A stretch of 63,856 bases of DNA, filler included, from Stramenopiles sp. TOSAG23-6 (GCA_900128565.1; 3 parts of 3 records of this genome joined end to end with filler, not necessarily neighbours in it); one strand, 5' to 3'. Positions 1-63,856 are shown, counted from the whole stretch's first letter. A program made the numbers and translations. The notes: generated from the sequence alone by a model not told the origin.

Positions 1-13
1 AATTTTAAATTTT

Positions 14-44
<31 letters not shown>

Positions 45-168
45 CGTTTTTTTCGGGAATAGTACGGATACCCGGCACCCAAGTATTTCATGATAAAATT
101 TTCATTATTGTCTTTTATTTTTTTAAATTTTTCATCAAAGACAACAATGTGCCTAAACTAAAGAGCTA

Positions 169-1200
169 TTATAACACTTGTACTGAAATATCAAGAAGTT
201 CAGGCTCAAAATATTCAGATAACTCATTCTTAGTAACCCAAGCATAGTCAACAAGTTCTTCAGAAACTGAAACATTTGGCTGTCCAGAAACGAAAATCGA
301 TCTATAAAAATAGACTTTTGCACCATAAAATTCTCCAGATTTTCTGACTTCTTTAGGGAATTCGTACGCATAATACGCAGATGGGGCATTAGATAAGAAG
401 TACACATCCAAATCATCTCCTAATTCTTCTTTTGTTTCCCTCTCTACAGTTCTTCGAAGTGTCTCATCAGTTTCTTTGAAGCCACCTTGAGGAAATTGCC
501 AACTATTGTTTTCTCTATCTTTTTTAACAATTAGGTATAAATCTTCTGCTAATGCACGATTCATCGATTTACGATCATTAGATTTATCAGCTTCTGTAAT
601 TCGAGGAGCTGGTTCAAATTCTAGTTCGAAAAGGTGCGCCCTCAACTGCTCATCGGCAATGTCAAGTGTCTCTTTTAATTGTTCTGCGGCCTCTGTATCT
701 CCCGCTGCTGCTGCTTCTTTCAATTTTGCTTTCTGATCAATGATTTTTTGAGCTTCTTGACGAGTTTCATCATAATATTCCTTTTTTGAATAAAAATCAT
801 CAGATATCCCATACTTCATGTCTTTATGACGTTCGTTCTGCATAATATTGTGCTCCACCTCCCAGTCCTCCAAGTCAGGCACTATTATCGCTGGACGAAC
901 AACAAAATTTGCAGCGACGGTGCGCCACGTTTTCCCTTCCTTTATCGCTTTAGCTTCCATCCTTTGAAGATTAGCTTCAAACTTTTTATCTTTTTCAGCA
1001 TAGAATCTTTTCCATTTACCCTTGTCAGCGCGTCGAGATTCTGTGGCCGCAGGTGGATTTTTATAGCTGGAACCTTTTTTTGGTTGACCTTTCTTCCAAC
1101 GTTTGACAGATAACATACGTAAGGATTGAAATCTATTTACAGATATAGATGTACTACTAGGACATACGCGCATTACATGCCGAGATATAACTTGAAACAT
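169..1200 (-). CDS. MRPL46: Mitochondrial ribosomal protein mL46 (Nudix-like C-terminus)
   Basis: PRITEADKSNDRKSMNRAL and WQFPQG...ETLRRTVERE match mL46; basic presequence-like N-terminus. The first ATG is at 1200 (the ORF track starts at a TTG). Confidence 0.85.
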   Translation of the reverse strand: MFQVISRHVMRVCPSSTSISVNRFQSLRMLSVKRWKKGQPKKGSSYKNPPAATESRRADKGKWKRFYAEKDKKFEANLQRMEAKAIKEGKTWRTVAANFVVRPAIIVPDLEDWEVEHNIMQNERHKDMKYGISDDFYSKKEYYDETRQEAQKIIDQKAKLKEAAAAGDTEAAEQLKETLDIADEQLRAHLFELEFEPAPRITEADKSNDRKSMNRALAEDLYLIVKKDRENNSWQFPQGGFKETDETLRRTVERETKEELGDDLDVYFLSNAPSAYYAYEFPKEVRKSGEFYGAKVYFYRSIFVSGQPNVSVSEELVDYAWVTKNELSEYFEPELLDISVQVL

Positions 1201-1470
1201 TGGATAATCAATGAATTTAGACAAGTCCCTGTAGTAATGCTACTTGTGTAGATGGTAGTAGTGAGCAATCCTTCGATGATCTGAAATTATATAAAAAGGC
1301 ACGTGTCCGTGGTCGGAAGAATTCAATTCGTACGAAAATTTCCTACTTGGTGATGTTTGATTTTTTCCTCTTTTTCTTTCCGTTGTGTAACCGTTGGCAA
1401 ACGTCTTCTTCTTGATTTCATAGATTACTACATTTATATCTATCTAGTCTAGAGGTGTCATTGACTCACC

Positions 1471-3592
1471 ATGAACCAAAGTTCTTATAGTGCTGCTGAT
1501 GATACGAGAGATAAAGTGCGTGTGGTAGTACGTGTCAGACCAGTATTACACTATGAGAGTGATCACATGGTTGTCGTTCGCGCTTCTTCAAGCGGTCAAA
1601 GTGTGAAAGTTTCTTCTACAGCCCCTTCGATGCGTGCTTCTGATAAGGGTGACGTCCGTGCGAATCGCAGAGAGTTTGCTTTTGATCGTTGCTTTGGTGG
1701 TGAATCAACCCAGGAGTACTTTTTCGATGCATGTGGAGTCAAAGATCTCTTACATGCGGGGTTGAATGGATATTGTGCAACAGTGTTTGCTTTTGGTCAG
1801 ACCGGAAGTGGAAAGACGTATACTATGACAGGTCCTCCAGAGTCAGTAGAAGAACCAAAAGTATCGAAAAAAGTATCAAAACTAACCAGTAATAATAGAA
1901 GTATGAATCACACTCCAGTCAAATTTGATGAATATTCTGGTGGTCTTGTCCCTCGTTCTATGAAGTATATTTTTACTTGTATTAATTCAATTCCAAAAAG
2001 TAATATTATCGTGCGCGCGTCGTACTGTGAGATATATAATGAAAATGTATACGACTTGTTGAATTTAACGTTAGAACCTTTGCCAGTACGATTTGATGCT
2101 GATGCGGGTTTCTATGTTCAAGGTCTATTGATAGCGACGTGTGACAACCTCAATGATGTTATGATGGTGATGAATGAAGGTTTAACAAATCGACGAACGG
2201 GATCTCACGAGCTTAATAAAGATACATCCCGATCTCACTCAATATTTACATTATATATAGAGTCGGAAGGAGTAAACTCTACAACAGGCAAGTCTTCGAC
2301 GAGATTTGGAAAATTATCTTTTATAGACTTGGCCGGAAGTGAAAAAGTGAAAAAGACCAAAGTGACTGGCGCAGGATTAATTGAAGCAACGAACGTTAAT
2401 CGTAGCCTCTTTACTTTAGGTAAAATTATATCATTACTGAGTGATCAAGCAGGTGATAGCAAACAAAGCCAAAATCGAAGTGGTTCAGCTAATGTTAAGC
2501 ATATTCCATACCGAGACTCAAAATTAACTAAACTTTTAATGGACTCCCTTGTATGTTTTCATCATGAATTTCAAATTTGTTTTTTTTTCATACGAAATTT
2601 TGTACCTAACAATTTTTTTTTGTAATTTTTTTTTTCACAATACATGTATGTTTTCATAATGAATTTTAATTTGTTTTTCTAGAAAAGTTAGTCCCTAACG
2701 AATTTTGAATTTAACATATTTTTCAACATTACATGGAGGTACTTCAAAAACGCTAATGATAGCATGTGCATCCCCGGGAGATAAATTTATATCCGAAACA
2801 TTATCAACGTTTTATTTCGCCACTCGCGCAAAAAATATTGTAAACAAGCCAATGGTTAAATTAAAACCAAAGGAACAGTTTGTCATTAGCTTACAAACTG
2901 AAGTAGTGGAATTAAGAAAAGAAAATAAATATTTGCGCAAACAATTGTCTATACCAAAACGAGAACGGAATATTCGAGAAGATTTGATGAGTCAAAATAG
3001 TGGTAGTAATAGTAATACAAATGTTTATGATAGGTATGCTGCAGGTTCAGGAGTAAATGCAATTAAATTAACAACACGAAGGAAAAACACAAAATCAAGT
3101 TCGATGCTTTTAGGAGCAAAAAGAGGAAATATAGGAAGTAGAGGAAGTGATTTTTCACGCCTTCGTCAACCTCGAATATATAGTGGGTTTATGCGTCCTA
3201 ATAGGAATACTAAATCAAGGCGTTCACAAAATAGTGAAAACATTTACACTTTTGAAAAAAGCAATAGTAACCCGTCTGTTGACAGTTTTCAGTCCAGTAA
3301 TAGTAATGGCATTTCAAGTAAATATATTCAAAATAGTAGACATAGTAGGACTAGTACAAAGGAATCATATGTACACGACCAAAACCAAACGGAAAATACT
3401 GAAATGAAAAATAAATATGAAGAAGAAGTTCGAAAAATGACTGAAGAGCGAGACGAAGCTCGCAGATTTTGTTGTACTACTTCAGCAAAGTTACACGCGA
3501 TGGAAATCGAAAATGAAAAATTACAAGATAGGCTTCGCCACGTAGAGGCTGTGTTTATAGATTCACAGATACAAGATAGAAATAATATATAA
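1471..3592 (+). CDS. Kinesin, KIF12/kinesin-16-like; exons 1471-2550 and 2735-3592
   Basis: GQTGSGKT P-loop, SRSH and DLAGSE motifs. HIPYRDSKLTKLLMDSL joins GGTSKTLMIACASP in frame once 2551-2734 is removed. Confidence 0.9.
2551..2645 (+). other. Family intron copy (GT..AT), first of a tandem pair in the kinesin
   Basis: GTATGTTTTCATCATGAATT...CATACGAAATTTTGTACCTAAC...CACAATACAT. Confidence 0.85.
2646..2734 (+). other. Family intron copy (GT..AT), second of the tandem pair with no exon in between
   Basis: GTATGTTTTCATAATGAATT...GTCCCTAACG...CATTACAT, followed by GGA GGT (GG of DSLGG). Confidence 0.85.
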
Positions 3593-3759
3593 AAAACATT
3601 GATGACATTATCCATACAGAATGTTGTATAGAGGTTTGACATTTTTCAGAATAATTTTTAGTACAAAACTGCTACAAAACTTCAAATTAGTCAAGATATG
3701 AAAATTGCGAATTGTACGCATTGCAATAGTTAAATTATACTTTATTATATTTACGCGTA

Positions 3760-4407
3760 TTAATTTAAGATAAAGGCAACTATTGATTCAACTTCATTAT
3801 TGTTTTCCAAACTGTTGACTCGTACTGTTATCGACTTTGATATTTTCTCAATAAAGAACTGAAGTTTTCGAGACTCTTCCTGCCCGATATCATTCATTAA
3901 AAACACACCTGTAACTGGAGGGTATTCAGCATATTGTTCTATCTGTTTGAAGACTCTAAGCTTGTTTACAAAACACTGCATCGCATAATTTGGGGTAGGA
4001 GATAATCGATTTAATTCTGACGACGCAAACGTTATTGCAGAACATAGTGTTTCAGATACCATTTCGGATGTAACTTTATCTCTATTTGTAACCACTGAAT
4101 CGGGACTTGAAGGTTTACTAACTGACGACACATTAGTTTTATATTTTCCCCCTCCCGTTAGTGCCACCCGAATAAAATCACGATCAGTCGATTCACACCC
4201 GTAAATAATTGTTGGTTCCACAATATCAACACTCTGATTGACCTCCTTTTTCAGCGCATTCACTGCTTTTACGTTATTACCAATTATGAGATACGAACCT
4301 GGAAGTTTACAGGTTTCCTTTTCAAGTTTTTTTTTTTGGTGTTTATTACGACGTTGTTTACGGTGCTTATGATGACTTGAACGACTTTTCTTATGTGCTT
4401 GATGCAT
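3760..4407 (-). CDS. Hypothetical protein with basic His/Lys-rich N-terminus
   Basis: 215-aa ATG ORF filling the space between flanking genes; no family recognised. Confidence 0.55.
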   Translation of the reverse strand: MHQAHKKSRSSHHKHRKQRRNKHQKKKLEKETCKLPGSYLIIGNNVKAVNALKKEVNQSVDIVEPTIIYGCESTDRDFIRVALTGGGKYKTNVSSVSKPSSPDSVVTNRDKVTSEMVSETLCSAITFASSELNRLSPTPNYAMQCFVNKLRVFKQIEQYAEYPPVTGVFLMNDIGQEESRKLQFFIEKISKSITVRVNSLENNNEVESIVAFILN

Positions 4408-4660
4408 TGTCGCAATATCCCAAGATTTTTCCTAAAGAGCTATCTAAATCTGTAGCTACAAAGTATCTTTCAGAAGAATCTAACTAACCTAGCTAATGAC
4501 CATCATGCATCAAATGTCATTGTGAAACCGTAAAAAAAAAAAATGACTTGCGTGACTTGACTTGTCGTCGTGTCAAACTGTATCTTTGAATCTCTTAGTT
4601 CTGTAATTTGAATCTGAAATCGAAATCTTTGAATATCTTACTGTAATTTCCAAAGGAAGA

Positions 4661-6294
4661 ATGTTGCGAGCATGGAAACGAAACACTGGTAAAAATTATG
4701 TACCGCCTAGAGCTTTCCAAGACCCCCTTTCACTATATACCCATGAAAATAAAGGCGAACCTAGAAAAATCAATGACAAGCAGGTGACCTTATCCTATGG
4801 AGATCGATTGGTTCCAAATTTGATAGCAAGGTTATCTGAGAATGATCCATTAGTAATTAGGCACACAATGTCTATAATCGAAGAGAGAGTAGTAAGAAAT
4901 CCAAAACACGTTTCTATTGCAGTACACTGCGGTCTCATTAATCAATTAAATGATCTTTCTATAAAATTTGCTGTAGCCAAGGATGATAATTCTTGGGACC
5001 CAGCCACTGCAGTATCAGCAGTGACTTGTCTTGGTCATCTATCGAGTACCCGGATGGCTAGAATAAAAATGATGGAGACAACTACCTTATCATGCCTCAG
5101 AAAGTGCATGAATGAAATGTCACCTCGTACTCTACAAACTTTAGCTTTTGACACTTTATTAAAATTGAGTTTTTATCGTGAAATTTGTACCAATTTACTG
5201 CTCGTTAAAAGCACTAAAAAACACGAAGAAAGGACAGGGGAAAGATATATAAATAATGGATTAATGAAGGATCTAGTATCTGTCTGTCCAAAATGGGAGA
5301 AAAAGTATTGCCGAAGAGAACTTGAGGAAATGAACCCTCAAGAAGAGGAAGAAATTGTTTTAAAAGGAAAAGGAAGAATGTGTGTTTCATTTTTTTTCAA
5401 TTTCGAATTTTTTTTTCGTACGAAATTTTGTACCTAACGAAAAACAATTTGAAATATTTTTCCAAAATACATGGCCCGAATAGAATATGAAGCTAAATTA
5501 AAAAAAAGAGAAGATGCCCAGAGGCTTCGAGCTGCAGAGCTTGCAGCATTAACACCACCAGAAATTATTGCGAAACATTTATTGCTTGTTCGAAATCTTT
5601 GTTCTTGTCAAATTGGTATTAAGCAAGCCCAAGATGAAGACGTGCGTTTTAATCCTTTTTTTTTTATTATTTATTTCGATTTAAAAAATTCAAAATGTTT
5701 TTTTACCTAACAAATATTCGTATTTGACATAGTATACCACAATTGTATGTCGTTCAAAAATGTGTTCGTCAATTACAAAATAAACATGGAAGTCTTCGAT
5801 CAGAGGCTACAAGACTTCTTCAAATTTTAACATTAAGCAAAGAAGGTGTTGATGCTGCAATATCAACAGGTCTATCAGATGTTGGGGAGGAGGCCAAATT
5901 AACAACAGGAATTCGCGCTAAAGTTATTTCAGGAGCTAGACCTGGTGCTATCAAAGCTTTAGTAGATTTATTGAAAGACCCTTTATGCATTGTTCGCCGT
6001 GCTGCGACAGGAACATTAATGTCACTTGTAGTGAATATCGAAGGGAAGAAACAATTTTTAAAGATTGAAGGAGTTCAACCACTAGTTTATTCTTTGAACC
6101 ACGAAATTGATTTATGGACAAAACAAAATGCGATACAAATCGTCGCTACGTTGGCGTGTTTGCCTGCCGCACGAATGACGTTGAGGAAGTGGAAAGTTGA
6201 AGAAGCCCTTGAAAATCTTGCAGATAATTCAAATAATACAACCATAGATGAACTTAGTAAAGTGTCACTTGAAGCTCTTCGTTGGGATCCATAA
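4661..6294 (+). CDS. RSPH14: Radial spoke head 14 (RTDR1)-like ARM-repeat protein; exons 4661-5379, 5473-5641, 5749-6294
   Basis: YGDRLVPNLIARL near the N-terminus, ARM repeats (GAIKALVDLLKD, GVQPLVYSL) and a C-terminal W-x-P. Three ORF-track pieces join in frame across two family introns. Confidence 0.7.
5380..5472 (+). other. Family intron (GT..AT) in the RSPH14-like gene
   Basis: AT|GTGTGTTT...TTTCGTACGAAATTTTGTACCTAACG...CCAAAATACAT|G; contains an in-frame stop. Confidence 0.85.
5642..5748 (+). other. Diverged family intron (GT..AT) in the RSPH14-like gene
   Basis: AC|GTGCGTTTT...TTACCTAAC...CACAATTGTAT|GTC restores the frame. An alternative in-frame end at 5730 (GACAT) is possible. Confidence 0.65.
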
Positions 6295-6671
6295 TTTTAA
6301 TGCAGTTTTAAAAAATATATTGTAATTATTTCTTTTAATTTTTATTTTATCTATCAAATTTTCATTAAAGCTGCAGGTGAAAATTAAATTAATAAATTTG
6401 AAAAATTTCAAAATTATGATAAGATTATTCAAATCTCAATCTCAAATCTAAAGAAGGTCCTAAAGAAGTTTAAACGAAGTTTAAGCAATTATTCGTTACC
6501 CGGTACAATCACGAATTATCAACTGAATAATAAGCCATATTTCGTGTGTGATCAAAATTGACATGCGAATGCGCGCTGGCTTCGAGCCTGACTCAAGATT
6601 AGTGGTGTCTCTCGGTTTCTTTTGTTTATCGTGCGCTTTTTTGAGATTTTATTCCCAACATTACAACAACT

Positions 6672-9600
6672 ATGGCCGAGTCATCGGATGTGCAAGTGAA
6701 GATGGGTGAAGTTGATGCGTTAAATTTTGGTCCGTCTTGGATGGATAAAGGATTTGCACCACCAGCTTCCCCGAAACTTGCAGGTCGTGTGGTATCCCAA
6801 CGACCTAAATACGTGTACAGTGTTCAGGAATTACGTTCGTTTCACAAACCTTCGCCTACACTTCCTTCAAAAATGATACTTATTGACGGGGTTATTGTTT
6901 CTGAGTCATTAGATCCGGTGTTTCTTACCCCAGAGGACAAAGATAAGTCCCTTAGCTTGTGGAAGCAGATCCCACAGCTGACCAAATCGAATCGTCGGGG
7001 TAGTGTACCTAACAAATCAGATTCTCGGCGTGACACTCGTGGTGTAAATGGTTTCAACTCCTCAAATCAAAGAGGAAAGCCATTTGGAGCTCCTATACAA
7101 AAGACATCTTCTACTATAAAGAGATCGATGGGAATCAATTCTGGTACTTCTGCAGTCAACTCAACAACTTCCAAAAAAGAGTCTGGACTTGCACGCTTCG
7201 AGCGTAATTTGGCTATGCGTTCGTCTCACTCAAGCAACATACCAACATCATCTCTTGCAGTACGCGACAGTAACAGACATAACCGTGGAAATATTATTGG
7301 CAATAATGGTAATGTCTCAGCATTGAAGCGTCATGATAGTTCTGACCACGGTAGTCGTAATGTCTCTAATGATAATGGTGCTTCAGATATGTGGACTCGG
7401 GGAGTGAAAGCACCAGAAAGAAAAGTAAAAAATGAACGTCCTGATAATCTAAAAAGGGATAACTTACGTGGTTTATCTTCGGATTTGTCACGGAACAACT
7501 TATCTGGAGGAGGAATGAAGGACGGTTCTTCTCGGGTATTGTCTTCTTCAAGTTCTCATGCTACTGCTAAGAACCCTAGTGTAGGCCTTGGTATGATGGC
7601 TGCTCAAACTGCTAGATTTGAAGAAATGAAAAAACAAAGACAAAAATCTTCCAGTGTGTCACAACCTTTGTCTGCTACAACTTCAAATGATAGATTAACT
7701 CAAGACATATGGAATGCTATTGGTCGTGGTGGTGAAAGTAGCACTGATAATAGTGGTACTTCAAATCCTAGTCCAAGTAAAATTTTATCTTCCCAGCAAC
7801 TCCAGATGCAGCAAATGCAAATTCGTAACGAGAAGCAACAACAACAAGAACAACAAAAGTTGCAACAACATCAGCAACAATGGTCGGCTAGTCAGCAGCA
7901 AAAAAATACACAACAACCCCAACAACCTCAATATAGTGAGCAATTTGCAGCACATGCCAGCGTCACAGCAACAGCTGCAGCTACGCCTGCACAAAAAACA
8001 CAAGCTAAAATTCAACAGTCCTCTGCATTATGGTGGTATTTAGACCCTCAAGGTAGAGAACAGGGTCCATTTAAGAATATGGATATGCGTGCCTGTACGT
8101 TTTATTTTAATGATTGAACTGCAAGTTATTTTTTTATACGAACTTTTTTTACCTAACAAAGAATTTTGAATTTTACATATTCTCTTCAATACATGGCACC
8201 AACAGGGTTTTTTTAAAAGAAATCTACCGATTCGTCTGGGAAATGGAAGCGATGGTGCAACCTTTAGTGAACTAGGTGCGATTTTTCCAAATTCAGCGGA
8301 AGCATTTTCCGTGAAGCCTCTTATTCCAAAACACGTTGAATCCCCGCCTAAATCTGCTATTTCTCCTACTCAGTTGACGAATCAACAACAGCATCAGTTA
8401 CAAGTACAACACATGATACGCCGTATGCAAGCTATACAATTACAAATGCAACAGATTGCTGCGCAATCTACCCAACATGGCACTACCCAAGCGAGAGAAA
8501 CGATGATGCAATTGCAGACACAATTGTTGCACCAACGATCTCAAATTCAAGCTCATATGCTGCAAATGTCGAATCAACAACAACAACAACAACAACAACA
8601 ACAGAGTCAACAGCATAATCAAGTTCAACAAGCTCAACTACATGCTCAGCGCCAAGCTCAATTACGTTTACAACAACAACAAGCTCAACAACAAGCTCAA
8701 CAACAAGCTCAAATTAAAGCTCAGCAACAAGCTCAAATTAAAGCTCAACAACAAGCTCAAATTAAAGCTCAACAACAAGCTCAAATTAAAGCTCAACAGC
8801 TAGCTCAAATTAAAGCTCAACAGCTAGCTCAAATTAAAGCTCAACAACAAGCTCAACAGCTAGCTCAAATCAAAGCTCAACAACAAGCTCAAATAAAAGC
8901 TCAACAACAAGCTCAACTCAAAGCTCAACAGCAACACCTCAAGCCTTGGGAAAATCCTAATAGCACATCAAAGTCTAATCCCTCGACTTCTACTGCGAAG
9001 AATTTGTCACAACATTCGCCGCGTCAGGCTAAGTCAACTGTGTTAGCTTCTTCTGATTCGTTCTTGGAGAACCAACAAAGAATTCAAATACAAAATCAGC
9101 AAAACGTTTTGAAAGACCAGAGTAGTAAGCGTTCGTCAATGTTATTGCCAAAGACTCAAGAGCAACAAAGCGAATTACTTCTTATTCAACGAGAACAAGA
9201 GAAAGAATTTCAAAAACAACAGCAAAAGCGTGCTTTAGAGAAGGAAAAAATGCAAAGGTTACAGGCGCTTCAGACTGTAAATGCTTCCGCTTGGGGTAAA
9301 AAAAGTAAAAATGTGTCTTCCATTAGTACGGGGAATGGAAAGTCTTTAAAAGAGATTCAGAAAGAAGAACAGGCAAGAGTGGCAGCACAAGAAGCAGCTG
9401 ATAAGCAAGCCGCTGCAGCTGGTGCTCGTGCCAAGGCTGGGCGGACCATGGCAGATCTCGTCGCCGGTAGTAGGAATAACGCAGCTGGTGCACAATGGGT
9501 CCGTGAACAGAGTTTATTGGCTGAATCTGAGGCTATTGCCACTGCAAAGAAACTTTCGTTGTCGGAGATACAGGCAAAGGAACAACTTGAGGTTGAGTTT

Positions 9601-10389
9601 CAGCAAAACCAATTAAAAATGAAGAATCAGCGTGCAACATCTTCTATGACCAAATCTGTGTGGGGTGGCAAAGAGTCTGGCACAAAATCGTTACTTCAAG
9701 TTCAAGCCGACGAGAGTCGACGTCTAAGCCAAATTCGTTCTCAGTCACAAACAAAATCTAATACAAAAAAACCTCTCGATCTTCGTACTATTCAAGCTCA
9801 AGAAGCTCGTGCCGCAGCTGCTGCTAGAGCGCAGAAATCTACTACTGGTAGTAGTGCCTCATCGTGGGCGGGTCGAATGGTAGGAAAATCCAATCAAAAT
9901 GTACCAGGTGTTTGGCAAACTGCTAATAACTTAACTTCAAATATTCCAGTTAGAAAGGAAAAAACAGAACCAAAGCAAAAAACGGGTGGGAGTAATCTGT
10001 TTTGGGATTTTGATGATGAAAATGCTAAATCAACACCTCAAAGACAAAAATGTTCTCAACAAAATACGCAAAATGTTGCTACGACAACTACTTCTGATTT
10101 TGGAGGTAAGTCAATGCCTAGACAAATGGTAGATTGGTGTGCGGTAGAGCTTAAAAAAATTATCGGTAACGATGATACCACTCTTGTTCAATTTTGCTTT
10201 ACTTTGGAGTCGAATGCAGATGTTCGGGAATATATGCGAAACTATCTTGGATCTACTCCTCAAGTTTCATCATTTTCGACTGAATTTATACAAAGAAAAC
10301 AGAGAGCTCTTAGCGGTGGTGTTGGGAATAATGCTGGGAACAATGTAACTGGTGCAATTACTAATCGCAGACGAAAGAAAAAACGTTAA
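6672..10389 (+). CDS. GIGYF-like GYF-domain protein; exons 6672-8094 and 8195-10389
   Basis: YVYSVQELRSF resembles the 4EHP-binding YxYxxxxL motif. The spliced GYF domain reads WWYLDPQGREQGPFKNMDMRAWHQQGFF. Q-rich middle and GIGYF-type C-terminus (VREYMRNYLG...FSTEFIQRK). Confidence 0.85.
8095..8194 (+). other. Family intron (GT..AT) splitting the conserved Trp codon of the GYF domain
   Basis: GCC T|GTACGTTT...TTACCTAAC...TCAATACAT|GG CAC. Confidence 0.88.
8670..8935 (+). repeat. Coding tandem repeat, about 24-nt unit encoding QQQAQIKA
   Basis: Repeated CAACAACAAGCTCAAATTAAAGCT units. Confidence 0.9.
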
Positions 10390-10587
10390 GTAATTTGAAC
10401 GTTTTAATTCGATTCTTCTCAGAATATTCATACATTTAGTTATTAAATGCGTATTCCCCATATAGATTTGTTTAGGGGTATTTATTACTGGATTTTGAAT
10501 GATGAATTAAACTAAAATGAGCTTCGTTTTTCTATATTTTTGTTTATTACATTTAAATTGTTGTTCTTTATTCTTGAATTATTCTTG

Positions 10588-13012
10588 TCACATTTCTGTA
10601 GTTCTTCTTGCAGCATCAGCATCGGTGTTTGAGTGAACTTCCTCAATTAAAATCTTTAATTCGCATAATTCTATTTGTAATCTTGATATTTTTTGTCTTT
10701 CTAGCTGTAGGGAGTGTTGCTTTGGATACATATTTCGTGATAAATTCATTTTCTGCATTTGTGCCTTTTGGATTGCTTCTTGGATTGATGCCAGTTCTTT
10801 GACAATTTCTTCCTCTTCTTTACTGTCTATATTATTTGAAAAATTAGAGCCCTTTATCACTTTCTGATGCAATTTTTTATTTGACCTAATTTCATTTTCA
10901 AGAGATTCTGTCAACACTAAAACTTTTTTCTTTGCTGTGTCTAAATGTTTAAATAGTCTAGCTTTATTTTTGTCGTATTCAGTACGTTTTTCTTTAACCA
11001 ACTGAATTCGTTGAATATATTTCTCTCTATCATTTTGAGTGAATTTAGTCCGAGACACTAACCAATTCTCAAGCGCAGATGTCTTTGCCTGCAAAAATTC
11101 TAGGGACGCTGTGCCGGCATTATAGATCTCACTACTAAATATAGTTCCTTTCCTGCCATTCTTGTATTTCTGTAAACGTTCTTTTGAAGTTGTGTTAAGC
11201 CTTCGAATGTTTGATGCATCTTGAACAGTCTTTACATTTATATCTCTAGTAAATGTTTTCACGTCATTTAGTGCATCGTTCACTTCATCAATTTCTACAA
11301 GTGCATTTGAGTAATCATTTTCGTAACATTGCTTACAAAAATGTAAATGCTTTTCAGCTGCAAGATGTATTTTGGAAAAATATTTCAAAAAAAAAACTTA
11401 AATTTGTTAGGTACACAATTTCGTACGAAAACAAATTTAGAATTTGAAAAAAATTAAAACATACATGTTGTTCCTCTATGAAATTAAGCTTTTTTTGAGC
11501 TTCAGAAATTTCTCTACTATGTATTGCACTTATTTCTTCAATCCAACTCCTTTGTTGAAGTATCATTTTATCGCTTAAAATTACTAATTTATCTTTACTA
11601 TTTCTAATATTGGCTAATTCACGAAACAGCGAGGAGTGCGAATCAATGGTATCCATGACTTCAATTTGTTCATCTAAATTTAAAATATCTGATTTTAGGC
11701 GACAAATTTCTAAATGTTGACGTTCTATTCTTTCCCGACAAAATTCCAGTAATTTTCGGGTCTCTTTAAAAGTACACCCATTTGCACTATTTGCAACAAC
11801 TTGCCCACCTCTGTTCTTGTAAAGTGCTTGTGACATTGATATAAAGTTCTCAAGACTCATAGTTTGAATGATGTTACCTTGTGTATTCTTTTGTGAAAGC
11901 ATATATTTTCTCAAATCTTTCAAGTTTAAATCTTCTTTTTGAGTACTTTTGTTCAATGTTTTAAGGATATTTTTAATTTCTGTCGCCTCCAGAAGACTAT
12001 CAAAGTTTATATCATATTGTGAAAATAAATGATGTAGTTCTTTAACTGTCATATGAAAATGACCTTGGCTTTGTTCGTTTAATACACGGTTAATGATTCC
12101 TAGGAAAAATTCTAAAGATATTTCATTACGTTTCTGCTGAAAATTTATAGTATTCCCAAGACCTAAACTTGCAATTTCGTATACCCTCCTTTGCATGCTT
12201 GTCGTCATCTCAAATGTAGAATGATTACGTTTACATAGTGTAAAAACTTTTAAAAGATTATCGGGAGATACAAACAATTCTTTTTGCATTTCAGTGGGTT
12301 GTATATCTTTGCTATCAACCATATTTTTTCTGACATTTGAAGTCATCTGAGCAATTTTATTGAATGATTGACTAATCTCTCTTCGCCAAATATCCGTAAT
12401 ATAATCTAGGTCTTGACTAGTGTCAATTATATTTTCGCTGTTCAATGAATTATACTCAGGTAAAGTTTGCGTTGGACTGACTACAGAAAATAAGATATGA
12501 CCAGATGCTAGTTTTTGTGGAACATTTTTAGTGGTTTTGGCCATTGATTTAACATCAATCCTTTTTAATGTATTCGATGTCGCAAATGCTGCCATTGCTT
12601 TTAAAGAACCATCACTTGTTCCATGTACTGCACCAACTGAAGCACTACTAAAATCATCTTCACCGACGAGGAATTCGTTGGGGTATTTAACATTTGTTTT
12701 TAGGTCAACAAGCTCAAAGGTTTTCGTGTTTTGTTTAAATTTTACTTTGATCTCACAGTAAAGATGAGATGCGTATTTTACAATGAACTTATATTTTGTT
12801 GAGTCAATCAATTTGTATAGTTTTACTTCCCACATCCCATTTGGGTTTGTATCATCTAAAACTTTAGCCCGTGAACCATCAGCAGATATTATTTCTAGTG
12901 CCAATTTTGCTTTATTACGTATTTTGTAAGGGCAATTAGGAAAACCAAACGCTACTGCCGCTTTGTAAACATCCGAACTTTTTGTTGGATGGAACCACTT
13001 TTTAGGCTCCAT
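10588..13012 (-). CDS. EF-hand-like/coiled-coil protein; exons 13012-11465 and 11364-10588
   Basis: ELHHLFSQYDINFDSLLEATEIKNIL is EF-hand-like and the C-terminal half is coiled-coil. Two ORFs join in phase 0 (IEEQH|LAAEK). Confidence 0.65.
11365..11464 (-). other. Family intron (GT..AT)
   Basis: Minus strand: CAT|GTATGTTTT...TTTCGTACGAAATTGTGTACCTAAC...CCAAAATACAT|CTT. Confidence 0.85.
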
Positions 13013-13214
13013 TTTGTTTGTGCTTGCAATTGTAAATGCAGGCTTTTTTGTTAGATACTACAGGACGGAAAAACAGTTTCGTTTTGTGAACAAAGCTGCT
13101 CTCGCTCTGCCATCAGAGAGATTCTTCTTTTTTTGGAGTCAGTCGTCGATCAATCTGATTGATCAAACTTAACGATTACAGCTCTTTTACCATTAAAGTT
13201 CGAGCTTTTCAAGG

Positions 13215-14102
13215 ATGGGAACTCTTGGCAAACGCCCAGCCGATGTGATCATTACCGATTTACACCAAAAGAAGAAGAAAAGCAGTTTAATAGTAGAAGG
13301 TTTGAAAAAATCTGAAATAAAACCAGTTGAAGTAGTACCTTCATCTTCCACTACTACTACTACCCGTGTCACTGAAGAGGCACCGAAAGCTACTTCTAAC
13401 TCCATAAGAGTTTCAAAGAAGAATAAACGAATAGTCTTTGGCGGTAAGCGCAGTGACGGCTTATTTCCTTGCAAGGAATTTGATACAACTGGTGAGTGTA
13501 AATTTGGCGAAAATTGTCGTTTTTCACACCTTGGTAGTGACGACCCAGGAATGCCTGTCGGGGTGAAACACGTACGCACTCGTAAGCGAAAAGCACCATG
13601 TTTTGCCTTCCAAAAAGGATCTTGTATTTACGGGAAAAAGTGTCGTTATAAACATGTATTAGTATCAGCTGATGAAGAGGCTACCGCAAAACGTATCGCA
13701 GAGATTGCAGCTGGTGGTGGTGGAATTTGTTATGATTTTCGAAAAGGCAACTGTTCCCGTGGTGAAGACTGTAAGTTTTCGCACGGAGGTGCTGTTTTTA
13801 CATCTGGATGTGATGTAAGTGAGAATGGCAATCTAGATCCACAGGCCGCAAAATTAGCACGGGTAATGGCTCTTCCAGAGAAAGAGCGCCAAATTGCTCG
13901 GGCAATATTCTTTCAAAAACAGAGAATGGGTCACCACAAACACTTGAATAGACAAGTTAAGAAGACAAGACTCAAAAAGCGAGGTCCTGATGGTAAGTTT
14001 AGCGGTGCATGCTTCGCGTTTCAGAAGGGACAGTGTACCCGTGGTGATGCTTGTATTTTTCAGCATGTTATAGATAAAACAATCAGAGAAAAAAGTGAAT
14101 AA
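13215..14102 (+). CDS. CCCH zinc-finger protein (4 fingers)
   Basis: Four C-x7/8-C-x5-C-x3-H motifs, e.g. CFAFQKGSCIYGKKCRYKH. Confidence 0.9.
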   Translation: MGTLGKRPADVIITDLHQKKKKSSLIVEGLKKSEIKPVEVVPSSSTTTTTRVTEEAPKATSNSIRVSKKNKRIVFGGKRSDGLFPCKEFDTTGECKFGENCRFSHLGSDDPGMPVGVKHVRTRKRKAPCFAFQKGSCIYGKKCRYKHVLVSADEEATAKRIAEIAAGGGGICYDFRKGNCSRGEDCKFSHGGAVFTSGCDVSENGNLDPQAAKLARVMALPEKERQIARAIFFQKQRMGHHKHLNRQVKKTRLKKRGPDGKFSGACFAFQKGQCTRGDACIFQHVIDKTIREKSE

Positions 14103-14440: not shown

Positions 14441-16016
14441 ATGATGATATTCTTTTTGCTTTTGACTCTGTTTCATAACACCCAAGCAATAAATGTGACA
14501 GCCATTCAATGGTCACCGCATTGGAGGTGTTTTGTTATGTTTAAAGACACATGTGGTCCTCAAGCGCGTCGGAACTTGGAGGCGATGATGTCTGTGTATG
14601 AGCCTGACTACATCAACCTCGGGATGTGGTCCAGCAATTTCGCTCTTCCAGAGGATGTATCTGCCAATTATCATGCTGTGTCCGTAGAGTGTGGAGCTGG
14701 TGATAGACTTACCCTTCTTATCAAAACGGATTATGAAATTATCAGTCATTATTATAAGGACGAAAAAAAGGTAGAAGGAGTTTTTGATGATAATAATCAA
14801 GGCTGCATGATGTCTAACTCAAGGGGAACAGATAGAGCATATATCATTCTCAATGTTCAACACAAAGTCACCAAACTGACACGTACAGTTGCTGCATTTC
14901 ACTTTCCTCATCCAACAGGAGCTGCAGCTGGTTCAAGTGGCCATGGAATTGAAGATCAAGCAAATATCTACAATATGATGGGAAAGCTTAGGGAAAAAAT
15001 CGATAATGCTCTTAGTGATAGTCAGCTGGATGAAAAAGAACTTGTCATTCTTGGAGACTTCAACGCCGATATCAGCCATCACTTCGCTGCTGACGGGGAA
15101 AAAAAACTGAATAATGGAACACTTAGGATAGTGAACCGCCCAGAAGACTGTACGGATGTAAAGTTGTCGTCACTAGCCAGGCTAGTCGCAGACGAAGAAA
15201 TGTACCTTTTCATTATGAATTTCATTTTTTTTCATACCTAATTTTGTACCTAACAACGTTTTTTGACCAATTTCACATTTCTATGTTTTCTCACAATACA
15301 TGGCGTGTAGTGATGTCATCATGGATGCATATTTTGATGACGCATGTGATTTATCATCAAAAAGTCCAACGGACTCATGTGCATCACGAACAAAGCGAGC
15401 TTTTTGTGGGTCAGAAAGTGTTCAAACAAAAACAAGAGGTCAGCCTAAGGCAAAAAATACATTTGACGAAGAAGGTATTATTCTAACTAACGATGAAATT
15501 GTGAGTACCTTGACCGGAGAAGATGAACCGAAATATGTCGCAACAGAAGCTTACGATACATGTTGCGCTGATAATATGCGTGGAGAATATGGGGGTAAAG
15601 AAATGGGTCCTAACAATTTTATTCTCGAAGGCGAAGAAACATCAAAAGATTTTTCGGCAGCATTTTCGTTTGATCGTGCCTTTGTCGTTAGTGAAGACCT
15701 TGCCTTTTCACACAATGCAAGAACATTAAAACCTTATAATGATGAAAGGTTTTTTTCCAAACTTGGACAAACACAGAATGATGTACTGTTGAGAATTATG
15801 GTGGGTGCTGCGCACCTGCCCATTGTTTTAACAGTAAACGAAGATGTGAGAGCAGAAGTGGAAGCAGAAGTTGAAGAAGCGGAAGCAGAAGAGGAAGAAG
15901 AGGAAGAAGAAGAGGAAGAAGANGAAGCAGAAGAGGAAGAAGAGGAAGCAGAAGAGGAAGAAGATGCTTTTGGATTCTTGGAAATGATGGAAGTAAGAAA
16001 ACTTCGCCACGCATAA
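14441..16016 (+). CDS. Secreted endonuclease/exonuclease/phosphatase (EEP)-fold protein with acidic tail; exons 14441-15201 and 15302-16016
   Basis: Signal peptide; VAAFHFPH, LVILGDFNAD, FDRAFV and AHLPIV motifs; poly-Glu tail. Two ORFs join across a family intron. Confidence 0.65.
15202..15301 (+). other. Family intron (GT..AT)
   Basis: AT|GTACCTTTTCATTATGAAT...TTTTGTACCTAAC...CACAATACAT|G. Confidence 0.85.
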
Positions 16017-18626: not shown

Positions 18627-20270
18627 ATGAATGTCGTTCCATTTTTTTATAAAAATGATACAGGTGAAGAATTTGGACCATTTCACCCAGCTCAACTAGA
18701 TGCGTGGCTCTCTCAGGGGCATTTACAGCAATCACTTTTAGTTCGAGCTGCTGATGAACCTGAAGGTGCATTCGTTTCAATCAGCGCACGTGGTGAAGAT
18801 CCGTTCAGAATTTGTGCACTCAAGGCACAATCTTTGACTTCATCAGATATGACTGAATCCAAAGAACGTAGTAGTAGATATGCAAGCTCTGACTTGGAAG
18901 ATGTCGCTTTGAATGACTGTTTTTATGACGATGAAGACGACGCTGATGTTGTCGCTCAGACAGCTCCTCTGTCGAATAAAGATAAAACTGACAAGAGACG
19001 CATAGTAACTAGTGATGATTTATTATTAGCTAACCAACATACAAATAAAAAGGAAAAGGAAAAAAATCCTGAAAAAAATCTTTCAGTGGATGCACTTGAA
19101 GGTAGCGTTCTTAACGATGTTCGTTTATGGGTAACAAAACAAGGATGGCAAAATTTAGATACGGTTGACGAAATAATCAAGAGAGTATTTAATGCGACAA
19201 AGTATCCTCTTGAAGGTTCTCCTTTAGGTATGGGCCTTCGTGATGAACGACCTTTATCGGATAATAGTGACGATAGTAAAGGAGGGGGGAGAAATGTGTA
19301 TGGAGTTGGTGCTGCTCCAAAAAAGGGTGAGGTAGCTGCAGCAGCGGCTGCACTCTCCCTCGTAGCAATAGAAGAAGCAAAAGAAGCAGAAAAAATAAAG
19401 TTATGGGAACATCCAGATGTTCAATTATGGATGAAGCAAAATTCTATCGAAACTTTGAGTGCACAAACGATAGGCTTTTGTCGGACATATGTTTGTTTTC
19501 ATCATCAATTTTTTTTATCTAAATATTTTTTGATTGACAATTTTGTTGTACCTAACGAATTTTTGACTACAAAAAATATTTTTTTAACAATACATGAAGA
19601 CATTGAACAATTTCTCTCTTCACCTCCATCGCCACCGACACAACTTATGCCTAATTTATATATTGGTCATGAAGGAAATGCACGTGATATAGAATGGCTA
19701 ACTAAAAATGAAATTAGTGGTATAATCAATTTAGCACCAGATGATATCTCGATATCAGTACATTTATATGACTCAGTGAATTCCCCTGGAATTTTATGTA
19801 CAACTGGTAATGTTTTAAATGATATAGATATTTCAAAAGAATCAAATGAAAAATACCAAAAAAATGTTTCAAATATTGAAGTTGCTTCAGGAGGTCTTGA
19901 ATATCTGTCAATTTCATTGTCCAATGATGAAGATTTTGATATTTTACCTTATTTTAAATATGCACACAATTTTTTAGATAGACATTTACATAGAGGTCAT
20001 AGTGTGTTATTATATTGTTACGATGGAATATCTGTTACACCAACTGTAGCAATGTCATACATAATGTTAAAGTTACATAGTAATGTTTTGAGTGTTGCTG
20101 CTTACGCATGGCGAAAGAGAAAGGTAATTGAACCGAATTTGTCACAATTAGCAGCATTAATACGATATGAAAAAATTTTATCGGAAAAGCGCTTAGGACA
20201 AAACATGAAAAGTCCTAATCTAAATAGCAAGAGTAATATAGAAAAAGATACTAGTAATTCTTCTATATAG
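18627..20270 (+). CDS. GYF-like plus dual-specificity-phosphatase-like protein; exons 18627-19490 and 19596-20270
   Basis: N-terminal FYKNDTGEEFGPF...LDAWLSQGHL; DSP fold PTQLMPNLYIG...VLLYCYDGISVTPTVAMSYIM...IEPN. Confidence 0.75.
   Translation: MNVVPFFYKNDTGEEFGPFHPAQLDAWLSQGHLQQSLLVRAADEPEGAFVSISARGEDPFRICALKAQSLTSSDMTESKERSSRYASSDLEDVALNDCFYDDEDDADVVAQTAPLSNKDKTDKRRIVTSDDLLLANQHTNKKEKEKNPEKNLSVDALEGSVLNDVRLWVTKQGWQNLDTVDEIIKRVFNATKYPLEGSPLGMGLRDERPLSDNSDDSKGGGRNVYGVGAAPKKGEVAAAAAALSLVAIEEAKEAEKIKLWEHPDVQLWMKQNSIETLSAQTIGFCRTYVCFHHQFFLSKYFLIDNFVVPNEFLTTKNIFLTIHEDIEQFLSSPPSPPTQLMPNLYIGHEGNARDIEWLTKNEISGIINLAPDDISISVHLYDSVNSPGILCTTGNVLNDIDISKESNEKYQKNVSNIEVASGGLEYLSISLSNDEDFDILPYFKYAHNFLDRHLHRGHSVLLYCYDGISVTPTVAMSYIMLKLHSNVLSVAAYAWRKRKVIEPNLSQLAALIRYEKILSEKRLGQNMKSPNLNSKSNIEKDTSNSSI
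19491..19595 (+). other. Family intron (GT..AT), 105 nt, in frame and without a stop codon
   Basis: AT|GTTTGTTTTCATCATCAATT...TTGTACCTAACG...AACAATACAT|GAA; read through in the ORF track as a Phe-rich insert. Confidence 0.8.
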
Positions 20271-21806: not shown

Positions 21807-21865
21807 TTTTGTACCAAATTTTGTACCTAACGAATTTCGAATGTAAAATAAATTTCACAATACAT
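21807..21865 (+). other. 3' half of a family intron (ends AT), truncated by the contig edge
   Basis: TTTTGTACCTAACG...TTCACAATACAT. Confidence 0.75.
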
Positions 21866-43590: not shown

Positions 43591-43676
43591 AAAATATTTT
43601 TTTTTGTAAAATTTGTTAGGTACAAAATTTCGTACGAAAAAAAAACTAAATTCGAAATTCAAAACATAAAACATAC
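43591..43676 (-). other. Family intron, 3' end truncated by the contig edge
   Basis: Minus strand: CAT|GTATGTTTT...TTTCGTACGAAATTTTGTACCTAAC. Confidence 0.85.
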
Positions 43677-49628: not shown

Positions 49629-50758
49629 TCACAACTCAATAATAGACCTGACAGGAGTTCCATTAAATGAAATATCATAAATCTTGGAAAATAGGGGAAA
49701 TTCATGAGTTGATTTAGTACGCTTCAACACTTCGTATACTTCTTTCGCAGTAAGAGTGCCTTGGAGTTTTTGCCCATTCAACAACTCTCTCTCAATATCT
49801 TCCCAACATTTTTTACCATTCGATGCCGCAAATGCTTCGGCACATTTTCTATTCCGACCACCATAACATGTAGTTATTAGATCAGCTACACCACAACTTT
49901 CAAAAAATGTACTATCAGAGACTCCACTGTAAAATTTCTGAGCAAATTTTTTCATTTCCAATAATCCAATTCTCATGTATTTTTGTAAAATATGTTTTTT
50001 TTTAGTAAAAAAAAATTGTTAGGTACAAAATATCGTACGAAAAAAGAAATAAAATTTATGATGGAAACGTACATAATTGCGGCTTTCGTATTTCCACCCA
50101 ACTTTAAGCCGTCAATAAAACCTGCACCAATTGCAACAATGTTTTTCAAAGCGCCACAAAGCTCCACTCCAGCAACATCATTCGTTAAATCAACGCGGAA
50201 GTAATCTGTATGGAAAAGAGCTTTGAAGATTTCTCCATTTTGAGGAATCGAACTCCCAATTGTTGTTTCACAGAATTGTTCTTTTGCAACTTCTTTAGCA
50301 ACATTTGCACCCATTAGTACACTAACATTTATATCAAGTCCTTTGCGGATTAAATCGGATATCAGAACAAGGCCTTTATCATCAAAATCAATTCCTTTGA
50401 TTAGAGAAATTGCTTTAGCGTCAGCCTTCATATGTTCTTTAATTGTAGGGATGAGTCGAGGTATAAACTGATGAGGAACCACAAATATCAAAATTGAGCA
50501 ATCACGCACAGCCTCACCAAGATCTGTTACAGCGACAACATTTGAAGGAAGTTTCACTCCTGGTAAATACTTTACATTTTCATGAGTGGTGTTGATAATT
50601 TCGGAAAGATTCTCACCGTTGACTTTTTCCTCATAAACGTACATTTTCACTGTTTCATCAAACGTTGGTAATTGCTTAGCATTCTTGCCAACTATTCGAG
50701 CTATTGCAGATCCCCAATTGCCAGAACCGACAATGCAAATTTTCTCTGGTGTGCTCAT
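49629..50758 (-). CDS. GPD1: NAD-dependent glycerol-3-phosphate dehydrogenase; exons 50758-50073 and 49974-49629
   Basis: IVGSGNWGSAIA, GALKNIVA, spliced TKAAIMRIGLLEM and ESCGVADLITTCYGGRN. Confidence 0.95.
49975..50072 (-). other. Family intron (GT..AT) in GPD1
   Basis: Minus strand: AT|GTACGTTTCCATCAT...TTTCGTACGATATTTTGTACCTAAC...AAAAATACAT|G AGA. Confidence 0.9.
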
Positions 50759-53307: not shown

Positions 53308-56258
<2,951 letters not shown>

Positions 56259-56528: not shown

Positions 56529-58550
56529 ATGCTCTCTCGCTTTGTTCAAATATCTAAGAATTTTCGGCAGGGTGTGCGACAATGTTCTTCTTCTTGCAAA
56601 GGTACATGGTCAACAATAAATGCCTTGCAAATTTCGGAGCTTGCGTCATTTAAAAGTGCTTCCCACGTGTTTGTTGATGAAGACAACTGTAATGAACTCC
56701 CAAGTTCAGCGACTCGTGTTTCATATCTGAATAAGCTTACGGGTGATGATGCTACGACTGTTCTTGAAAATGCAGATTGTACTGTCACCTATATTTTTCA
56801 GGACGATAAGGGTATACTTGTTGACAAATATGGCGTCTGTGTTGAGGCTGTCGAAGATATTTTTGCTAAAGGTGGAAATACGACATATTTGCATTATTCA
56901 AAGTTGGAAACCAATCCAAAACGTCGTCTTTTTGTTCTTGTGGGGGAATCTGCAAAAGCTGATGCGCCCGCACTCCGTAGTGCGACAAATGCTGCCATAT
57001 CATGTCTTCGGAAGATTGCATCTGTCGAAAATATTATCATGGAACTCCCTAATTTAGATCGTTTGCCAATGTTACACAAGGCTGCTGCTGCTGGTTCAGC
57101 TGGAAATGAAAATGTCGCATTTGACGGTGATGTGGTGAGTTTAATTACTCGAAGTGCGTGTCTATCTAATTATTCATTTTCGCGTTTTAAAAATGAATCA
57201 ACAGAGCCTTTGTTGAAAAACATTGTATTTGCTAGTCAAGCACCTTCGTCTACTATAAGTTCAACTGACCCAAGTACAAGTGAAATTCCACCAGATTCTC
57301 CTCCATCTGTGGAAGATGTTGCAAAAGTACATATGTCTATTTTAGCACCTGCACGTGTAGAAGTTAGTACCGTGCTGGCAGATGCGACAATTTTTGCTCG
57401 TGATTTAGGTAATTTAAGAGCAGATATTGCCAATCCTGCGTTTATTGAAAGTCTTGCTAGACAAGTTGGAGAAACTCATGGTGATAACTTGAGTGTAAAA
57501 GTCTTACAACAACCACAACTTCATGAGTTAGGAATGAATCTTCTTGCTGCTGTTGGACAAGGTGCTGCTGGTGGTCCTGGATGTGGTCGAGATAGCTCAG
57601 CGCCGCGTTTAATTACATTGGAATATTTCGGTGATCCTGAAAATACTACGAATGATTTCGCTTTAGTAGGTAAAGGTGTCACATTTGACACTGGAGGACT
57701 GAACTTAAAACCGACGGGTTCAATTGAGGGAATGCATTTAGATATGTGTGGTGCTGCATCTGTACTTGCTGCAATTGATGCAATTGCAAAGCTAAAAGTA
57801 CCTCGTAATGTTATCGCAGTTTTAGCTGTTGCTGAGAATGCTATTGATGCAGCAAGCTTTTACCCAATGCAAATTGTGAAAGGGTTAGACGGACGCTCAG
57901 TTGAAGTTGGAAATACAGACGCAGAAGGGAGACTTTGTCTTGCTGATGCATGTTCGTTATTCTCTTACATTTCATTTTTTTGTTTTGTAAAAACACGTTT
58001 GTATCTAACATTTTTTTTTTAAACAAAACAAAAACAAAAATAATATATTTTTCACAATACAGTAACATATACTCAGAGAGAGTATAATCCAAAACGAATC
58101 ATTGATATGGCTACTTTAACAGGTGCGTGTGTGGTAGCATTAGGTGAATATGCAGCTGGGTTGTTTACAAATGATAATGTAACACACAATGGTGTTGAAC
58201 CTAAATTTGGTAAGAATAGTGATATGACAACTGACCTTACAATTGCAGGTTCTCGTATATTTGAGAGAGTTCATAAATTACCTATATTACCAGAGCATAG
58301 AGATGAAATTTTAGAAAAAGGAGAAGCCAACCACGCTGACTTGAAAAGTATTGGAGATGGTCGCCCATATGGTGGTTCATGTACCGCAGCAGCATATCTA
58401 GAATCTTATATTGATGATGGGAGACAGTGGGCGCATATTGATATAGCAGGACCAGCAATGTATAGCAAGGCACGTGGTGAGATGCCTGCTGGAGCTACTG
58501 GCTTTGGTGCTGCCCTTCTTGTTAGAACTATTCTGGGACATAAAGCATAA
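56529..58550 (+). CDS. M17 leucyl aminopeptidase, probably mitochondrion-targeted; exons 56529-57951 and 58063-58550
   Basis: VGKGVTFDTGGLNLK, DMCGAA, NTDAEGRLCLADAL and IDMATLTGA; presequence-like N-terminus. Confidence 0.93.
57952..58062 (+). other. Family intron ending in canonical AG (GT..AG)
   Basis: GCA T|GTTCGTT...TTTGTATCTAAC...CACAATACAG|TA ACA gives ADALTY. Confidence 0.88.
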
Positions 58551-63791: not shown

Positions 63792-63856
63792 GCACGTTTT
63801 CATTTTTTTTCAAATTCGATTTTTTTTTCGTACGAAATTTTGTACCTAACGATTTT
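63792..63856 (+). other. Family intron with GC donor, truncated at the window end
   Basis: AAT|GCACGTTTT...TTTCGTACGAAATTTTGTACCTAACG. Confidence 0.8.

Follow-up and report, generated by a model that had tools for sequence, protein, structure and literature searches.

Two abutting copies of an introner-like intron family that mostly ends in AT split a kinesin gene and are both absent from its RNA

Can two introns stand directly against each other, with an exon of zero length between them, when neither ends in AG? This question is raised by a kinesin gene in a stretch of 63,856 nucleotides (nt; hereafter the window) of Stramenopiles sp. TOSAG23-6 (GCA_900128565.1). The KIF12-like gene is split by 184 nt consisting of two copies, A and B, of a repeated intron family with the pattern GTAYGT...GTACCTAAC...ATACAT. 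A preliminary description of the locus had stated that A ends at 2645, that B starts with GTATGT at 2646 and that each copy has its own branch site. Both the sequence and full-length profile matches bear out this anatomy, and the tandem is thus confirmed as real and correctly described (coordinates along the window are collected in Table 1).

Copy A is complete before the first base of B, and all six signals of the two copies are intact and uninterrupted. The 3′ terminal stretch is CACAATACAT in A and CAACATTACAT in B, and exon 2 follows B with GGAGGT from 2735. The junction at 2645/2646 reads ..CACAATACAT/GTATGTTTT.., with both sides matching the acceptor and donor consensus of the family itself. 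An acceptor-type end hence abuts a donor within the removed stretch, as in a recursive splice site, and the CAT/GT junction might plausibly act as one. The branch A lies 36 nt from the intron end in either copy. The inner signals, i.e., GTACCTAAC and ATACAT of A and GTATGTTTT of B, correspond perfectly to the consensus, whereas the branch motif of B has a change.

The pair interrupts the kinesin exactly at DSL/GG. A BLASTP match to the oomycete kinesin P0005 ended at residue 417 (..LMDSL) and resumed at residue 418 (GG..). In a frame test, removal of 2551-2734 joined a frame of 362 codons to one of 285 codons in phase 0, whereas the long open frames stayed unjoined when only A or only B was taken out. 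The partly spliced forms would meet a stop after 7 codons (A removed) or after 24 (B removed). To examine transcripts, contigs of four sequencing runs were placed on window positions 1-20000, and 15 of 82 joints were listed. The joint 2549>2734, which skips 184 nt, was present in one contig of run X5 and one of run X7, originating from two different studies. It slides by 2 and is therefore compatible with 2550/2735. The X5 contig flanks the joint with 172 and 310 letters and shows 1 differing letter per piece, the RNA status of X5 being a guess; X7 is a polyA metatranscriptome (side 63). No contig with the 184-nt joint was found in the metagenomic DNA run X2. The joint in RNA contigs thus demonstrates an mRNA that lacks both copies and reads DSLGG, in line with the earlier statement that both have to be removed (184 nt) and that loss of A or B alone costs the frame. 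Precise removal from RNA was confirmed by contigs for this site; at the other family sites it is supported by the frame. Neither a 95-nt nor an 89-nt skip occurred among the 15 of 82 joints listed and, since assembled contigs drop rare forms, we draw no inference on partly spliced intermediates from them.

The public gene model of this locus tells a different story. Protein P0121 maps letter for letter on the kinesin locus (1471-3589), and the start codon at 1471 was adopted from this mapping. At the A/B site, P0121 retains VCFHHEFQIC, encoded by 28-30 nt of the start of copy A, and then resumes at TSKTLMIAC. The intron presupposed by this model, GT(~2579)..AG(2738), is forced and deletes the conserved GG of DSLGG. 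The junction is a false GT-AG intron and is contradicted by the RNA contigs. Furthermore, P0121 drops seven in-frame stretches (45, 30, 33, 96, 45, 51 and 270 nt) of continuous open frame, at least some of which are conserved in homologues.

To place A and B in their family, a profile was built from 11 window copies and searched with nhmmer. The search returned 20 matches at E<=0.02, of which 19 are intron copies and one is a fragment in intergenic sequence. Inspection of frame and motifs contributed two further, degenerate copies (54998-55137 and 5642-5730). In total, the window (63.9 kb) contains 21 intron copies at 20 sites, 18 of them complete and three cut by a linker or by the window end. 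They reside in unrelated genes (kinesin, MCM, M17 peptidase, glycerol-3-phosphate dehydrogenase and others), always in the sense orientation of the host gene, and no intron outside the family was found in the window. When borders were set by a GT..ACAN rule, the frame was kept in 16/16 single copies, with a chance expectation of 1/3 each. Donors are mostly GTATGT or GTACGT with some variants, and branch motifs differ little from GTACCTAAC. The distance from donor to branch A is 52-69 nt in 17 of the 18 complete copies (104 in the remaining one), and that from branch A to the 3′ end is 33-54 nt in 17 of 18 (20 in one). Several copies of type II are near-identical over their whole length, demonstrating a true repeat family rather than merely strong splice signals. 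The ends are inverted (GTAT..ATAC), and self-symmetry exceeded z>2 in 10/17 copies. RNAalifold, on the other hand, gave no consensus pairs for the family copies, and single folds reached z-scores of only –2.7 to 0; a structure-based splicing model was therefore dropped.

The size of the family beyond the window can be gauged from run X2. Bins with family sequence had a summed depth of 3,000-11,500 vs about 6-10 in flanking bins, and 103 X2 contigs cover place 2579. This depth is summed over loci and organisms and was therefore not used as a copy number; what it does show is that the sea-water community contains a repeat family of very large size. Exact-pattern scans gave 0 matches to the tandem pattern in metagenome_contigs, and 0 matches to a 22-nt family core in metagenome_contigs, viral_contigs and genome_contigs. 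In run X6, an RNA contig (depth 8.5) with the joint 5437>2550 passes from a family branch-site region through 34 T-rich letters that end in ..GCCA to TGTATGT.. of another copy. It may represent a second abutting pair elsewhere, still unspliced.

The acceptor is the unusual feature of these introns. The last dinucleotide of the 18 complete copies is AT in 15, AC in two and AG in a single case, so that canonical GT-AG or GC-AG borders are the exception. At the A/B site, the RNA joint permits GT..AT, TG..CA or TA..TG, all of them lacking a terminal AG. An AT-AC (U12-like) reading was ruled out at this site by the RNA joint 2549>2734 together with DSLGG, and a TA-bounded excision (2552..2730) was rejected because it would insert Val-His into DSLGG. 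U12-type introns have the donor [AG]TATCCTT and a ..CCTTAAC-like branch motif about 10-26 nt from the 3′ end. The family resembles U12-type AT-AC introns in its non-AG acceptor and its ..CCTTAAC-like branch motif, but differs in the donor, which is GTAYGT and not [AG]TATCC, and in the longer distance from branch A to the intron end, including the 36 nt of A and B. Scanning the window for Rfam families and tRNAs yielded no match and hence no small nuclear RNA to set beside the odd splice signals.

How did two copies come to abut? Pairwise alignment of A and B gave 67 identical over 89 aligned positions. In the family alignment, their identity was 73% compared to a mean of 70% for all pairs, and B ranked only 12th of 16 in closeness to A, with eleven copies nearer. 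The nearest copies are c15202 for A (83%) and c19491 for B (75%). As A and B are no nearer to each other than the family average and are not mutual nearest neighbours, two insertions are indicated rather than a local duplication. The preliminary description had proposed that one element inserted at the AT end of the other and that such an end is the preferred target. Both proposals gain support, the former from the distinct nearest relatives and a 5-nt repeat (B is flanked on both sides by TACAT, the upstream one being the end of A), i.e., from indirect statistics of one window. With regard to the target, AT stands directly upstream at 12/17 exon sites vs a background of 9.3% (p 1.6e-9), as well as at both truncated copies with a visible 5′ flank. 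G stands directly downstream at 12/17 exon sites, and in each of the four phase-2 copies the intron divides an ATG codon into AT/G. A direct repeat, in which the intron end equals the upstream flank, measures 0-5 nt and is at least 2 nt long in 12/18 copies. Repeats of this length were found in 11/12 copies scoring >=33 bits vs 1/6 degenerate copies (Fisher p 0.004, with a cut-off chosen after inspecting the data). Copy 60457 has AC upstream and AC at its intron end, while A shares just 1 nt (T) with its own flank. In copies 54998, 57952, 5642 and 60258, the last base of the intron does not match the base upstream. A target-site duplication of a few bases would fit the overall pattern, as would a strong preference for certain targets at insertion, in either case with later decay; a splicing requirement would fit it less well.

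The order of events can be approached by counting. If A came first and B then entered its end, one insertion departs from the target rule; if B came first and A landed at its 5′ border, two do. With about 1,200-1,280 ATG sites per strand and 20 insertions, one exact abutment would occur with a probability of ~0.3 if AT/G sites are targeted and of ~0.006 if copies are placed anywhere. From these considerations we infer two insertions, their order and the logic of the target site.

We consider it rather probable that A and B are independently inserted copies of an introner-like element, B having arrived later in the TACAT end of A, and that each is spliced separately. The element, ~90-110 nt long, would have spread through the genes of a compact, AT-rich marine eukaryote, bringing its own donor (GTAYGT) and branch site (GTACCTAAC). 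Excision would stop immediately behind ..ATACA+N, whose final one or two bases usually match the exon bases upstream, mostly AT; such a repeat of upstream AT would explain why the acceptor is not AG. Since a resident copy ends in ..ACAT, mostly followed by G, its own 3′ border would recreate the preferred landing site. Accordingly conceived, A would have entered the kinesin at CTT/GGA and B would afterwards have landed in the terminal TACAT of A, leaving two complete introns with no exon between them. The likeliest route of removal would be two ordinary splicing events, one per copy and in either order. Removal of A would leave CTT/GTATGT with the same donor hexamer, and removal of B would leave ATACAT/GG, a typical acceptor context of the family. 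A single event from the donor of A to the acceptor of B gives the same mRNA. Stepwise removal appears somewhat more likely, judging from the consensus inner signals, the 148 nt that a single step would have to span between the donor of A and the branch of B, and the fact that A is transcribed first. A bolder extension, which we put forward tentatively and hold to be somewhat doubtful, is that the family comprises perhaps thousands of copies, with an acceptor set by the element end plus the duplicated target and a capacity for self-stacking. The kinesin pair would then be a non-AG ratchet with a zero-length exon, removed in two rounds, and an instance of intron growth by fusion of introners.

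Several observations weigh against separate insertion and separate splicing. Neither a splicing intermediate nor a lariat was seen, in contigs that lack rare forms and with 15 of 82 joints listed. Among the X2 contigs displayed, no independent DNA contig crosses 2645/2646. The window data on the repeat are compatible with target-site duplication, target preference or a splicing requirement, with a single informative covarying case (60457). A itself has no upstream AT, and the target rule is thus not absolute. Moreover, A is nearer to the family profile than B (54 vs 42 bits), which naively makes A the younger copy, in a profile that was built mostly from A-like and type II copies and is hence biased towards A-like ones. 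Finally, a reading with each border moved one base leftwards (TG..CA) is equally admissible for every copy but 57952, where it gives Val for the conserved Leu of LADAL.

The 184 nt might alternatively act as one intron, in which the donor of A works with the branch and acceptor of B, while the branch and 3′ end of A and the donor of B are relics. The complete removal is the only RNA form seen, and a family intron of 140 nt exists (54998-55137), showing that intron length is not strictly fixed. However, the supposed relics are perfect in consensus while the branch motif put to use in B is the altered one, the 148 nt from the donor of A to the branch of B exceed the range of the 18 copies (at most 104), and the complete signal set of A is transcribed first. 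None of these three points is decisive; we regard a single intron as rather unlikely. Local tandem duplication of a single resident intron, with subsequent divergence of the halves, would account for the resemblance of the first 24 nt of A and B, which are alike in 21/24 positions and in 12/12 at the start. This 5′ motif is common to other copies, though (CATCATGAATTT in 60621, 54998 and 19491), and the 3′ halves belong to different variants, that of A resembling 59785 and 60621 and that of B resembling 50072 and 19491. Given also an identity close to the family average and eleven copies closer to A, duplication seems improbable.

An artefact, whereby two alleles or strains with one intron each were stitched into a false tandem by the assembly, deserves attention because the window is composed of joined contigs that break at family copies, the best-matching DNA set X1 may be the source itself and no independent bridging contig was displayed. 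Yet a false tandem needs reads that span ..CACAATACAT/GTATGTTTTCATAATG.., and A and B are too different for repeat collapse or expansion. In the independent run X2, one contig extends from exon 1 into A (863-2583). Two others cover B at 2690, no closer than 95 letters to a contig end, and differ there by A>C; among the joints listed, none in X2 skips A alone or B alone. We thus deem stitching very improbable. Elimination from DNA rather than RNA, as for the internal eliminated sequences of ciliates, would agree with the short inverted repeats at the ends (GTAT..ATAC) and with borders that can be written TG..CA. It was rejected, and retains next to no credibility, because the joined form occurs in RNA runs and is absent from X2, where the elements are very deep, and because donor and branch-site motifs are conserved and all copies are sense-oriented; standard stop codons also fit the long open frames.

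Comparison with known systems, for which parts of the cited sources were consulted, helps to place two separately inserted introns. Many similar introns in unrelated genes of one genome characterize introners, and the family has this distribution. Like the introner elements of Micromonas pusilla (IE1), Aureococcus and others, which are short DNA-transposon-like repeats giving rise to introns, it consists of many-copy similar short introns in unrelated genes, and the short inverted repeats at its ends may be a further shared feature. It departs from introners with an AG acceptor in ending with AT, sometimes AC and once AG. Unlike in known introners, the repeat is just 1-5 nt, a candidate target-site duplication, and no transposase partner was seen in the window, with none among its Pfam matches. 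In the model for Micromonas IE1, the donor is derived from the element and the acceptor from a duplicated target repeat (PMC11282704). The family would follow a similar scheme, except that its repeated bases are AT, so that the acceptor is not AG. A closer parallel to the odd borders is provided by the transposon-derived introns of Fritillaria borealis and Amoebophrya, whose ends are likewise set by the element plus a short exon/intron repeat and have non-GT-AG borders that defeat standard gene predictors (PMC11282704, PMC7789003). Those of Fritillaria (AG-AC, AG-AT) and Amoebophrya (no clear dinucleotides) are mostly without a GT donor, whereas donor and branch of the present family are yeast-like and the acceptor alone is unusual.

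Zero-length exons have precedents as well, with 196 ratchet points in Drosophila (bioRxiv 10.1101/006163) and two cases of zero-nucleotide exons in S. pombe (10.1101/226894). As in this type of recursive splicing (Drosophila; S. pombe SPNCRNA.445), an acceptor lies against a donor and piecewise removal restores a splice site (bioRxiv 10.1101/006163, 10.1101/226894, PMC8605326). Ratchet points, however, are AG/GT, their stepwise use has been demonstrated and in flies they lie in very long introns, whereas the A/B site is CAT/GT, its halves are complete 90-nt copies and its stepwise use is putative. The stwintrons of Hypoxylaceae are another parallel: these complex intervening sequences are composed of short introns that are related to one another, proliferate, show partial symmetry and have a central palindrome, and they are removed by consecutive splicing (PMC8469720, PMC9024468). 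The palindrome is TTTCTAGAAA in these stwintrons, TTTTCTAGAAAA in copy B and TTTCGTACGAAA in most other family copies. In a stwintron, the inner intron interrupts the donor, branch or acceptor of the outer one and the order of removal is forced. No signal is interrupted in A/B, which are thus not a stwintron, and either order or one step is workable. Fungal stwintrons also differ from the family in being GT-AG and without flanking repeats. Introners and zero-length-exon splice sites are already known; the transposon-born introns of Fritillaria and Amoebophrya do not combine a canonical donor and branch with a non-AG acceptor. The searched parts of PMC9860276 and PMC12130899 do not mention abutting introner copies, and no description of a GT..AT family or of abutting introners was found in the literature searched, including parts of PMC5269757, PMC5778133 and bioRxiv 10.64898/2026.04.17.719054.

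The value of the pair is mainly that it can be used as a test case and that it cautions anyone predicting the genes of uncultured marine protists. It offers a clean natural test of acceptor choice without AG and of the recursive removal of short introns, as the two possible intermediates can be distinguished by diagnostic bases from the unspliced and the fully spliced form. It also suggests a simple route by which introns may lengthen, namely introners stacking on their own regenerated target. Canonical-only gene prediction fails at the kinesin locus, and the predicted proteomes of uncultured marine protists may be damaged at many genes.

Table 1 Features of the kinesin locus, other family copies and contig linkers in the window
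Feature	Position	Strand	Signals and remarks	Basis
KIF12-like kinesin, exon 1	1471..2550	+	ends ...LMDSL	Pfam Kinesin profile 1-292; BLASTP to P0005 up to residue 417
Copy A, 95 nt	2551..2645	+	donor GTATGT 2551-2556; branch motif GTACCTAAC 2602-2610, branch A 2609; end ATACAT 2640-2645	nhmmer model positions 1-99, E 5e-16
A/B junction, zero-length exon	2645..2646	+	..ATACAT/GTATGT..; acceptor-type end directly adjoins donor	
Copy B, 89 nt	2646..2734	+	donor GTATGT 2646-2651; branch motif GTCCCTAAC 2691-2699, branch A 2698; end TTACAT 2729-2734	nhmmer model positions 1-99, E 4e-12
Kinesin, exon 2	2735..3592	+	begins GGTSKTLMIAC; stop TAA 3590-3592	Pfam Kinesin 293-327; BLASTP to P0005 from residue 418
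Family intron	5380..5472	+	GTGTGT..ATACAT, phase 2	nhmmer, frame
Degenerate family intron	5642..5730	+	GTGCGT..TGACAT	weak nhmmer match; frame by eye
Family intron	8095..8194	+	GTACGT..ATACAT, phase 1	nhmmer, frame
Family intron	11365..11464	-	GTATGT..ATACAT, phase 0	nhmmer, frame
Family intron	15202..15301	+	GTACCT..ATACAT, phase 2	nhmmer, frame
Family intron, 105 nt	19491..19595	+	GTTTGT..ATACAT, no in-frame stop	nhmmer, frame
Artificial linker	21707-21806		44 N, TTAATTAATTAA, 44 N; separate contigs joined	
3′ part of family copy	21807..21864	+	cut by contig linker	nhmmer
Artificial linker	43491-43590		44 N, TTAATTAATTAA, 44 N; separate contigs joined	
5′ part of family copy	43591..43676	-	cut by contig linker	nhmmer
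Family intron in glycerol-3-phosphate dehydrogenase gene	49975..50072	-	phase 2	nhmmer, Pfam, frame
Family intron in MCM gene	54391..54481	+	phase 0	nhmmer, Pfam, frame
Family intron in MCM gene, 140 nt	54998..55137	+	GTTCGT..ATACAC	nhmmer, frame/motif inspection
Family intron in MCM gene	55830..55933	+	GTACGT..GTACAT	nhmmer, frame
Family intron in M17 aminopeptidase gene	57952..58062	+	GTTCGT..ATACAG; sole AG-ending copy	nhmmer, frame
Five family introns in one gene	59785-59876, 60080-60169, 60258-60367, 60457-60548, 60621-60722	+		nhmmer, frame
5′ part of family copy	63792..63856	+	GCACGT.., cut by window end	nhmmer

The window is compact, with a gene every 1.8 kb or so, and rich in AT, its GC being about 0.28-0.41. 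Its gene content is that of an ordinary eukaryote and comprises, besides the kinesin, MCM, Rab and Arf GTPases, M17 aminopeptidase, glycerol-3-phosphate dehydrogenase, a SNF2/bromodomain protein and ankyrin proteins. The nearest named relatives of the kinesin come from a labyrinthulomycete and oomycetes (44-46% identity), and this protein similarity suggests a stramenopile host. Matches to the stretch were found in seawater metagenomes and metatranscriptomes. The two N44-TTAATTAATTAA-N44 linkers reveal that the window consists of at least three joined contigs. At each linker, a family copy is cut on at least one side of the break, which would be expected of a repeat that interrupts assemblies.

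The distribution of copies is uneven. The gene with five introns (59785-60722), to which no function was assigned, has exons of 203, 88, 89 and 72 nt between them, all within 940 nt, and is a local hot spot of insertion. No introns are present in the two longest genes of the window, both on the minus strand (2810 codons, 23005-31434; 2280 codons, 32386-39225). The intron at 19491..19595 lies inside a continuous frame of 550 codons, and its retention would add 35 residues and leave the protein unbroken. Long tandem repeats of 87/174 nt and 195 nt occur within genes at 46056-47027 (in an ankyrin gene on the minus strand) and 23015-23397; they have no relation to the intron family. The central palindrome of the family, TTCGTACGAA, also occurs in intergenic sequence at 1327-1336 and 53125-53134, ~140-160 nt upstream of the kinesin and MCM frames. 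These 2 occurrences outside introns compare with ~0.06 expected for a 10-mer, and the additional sites could be a promoter motif or relics of family copies.

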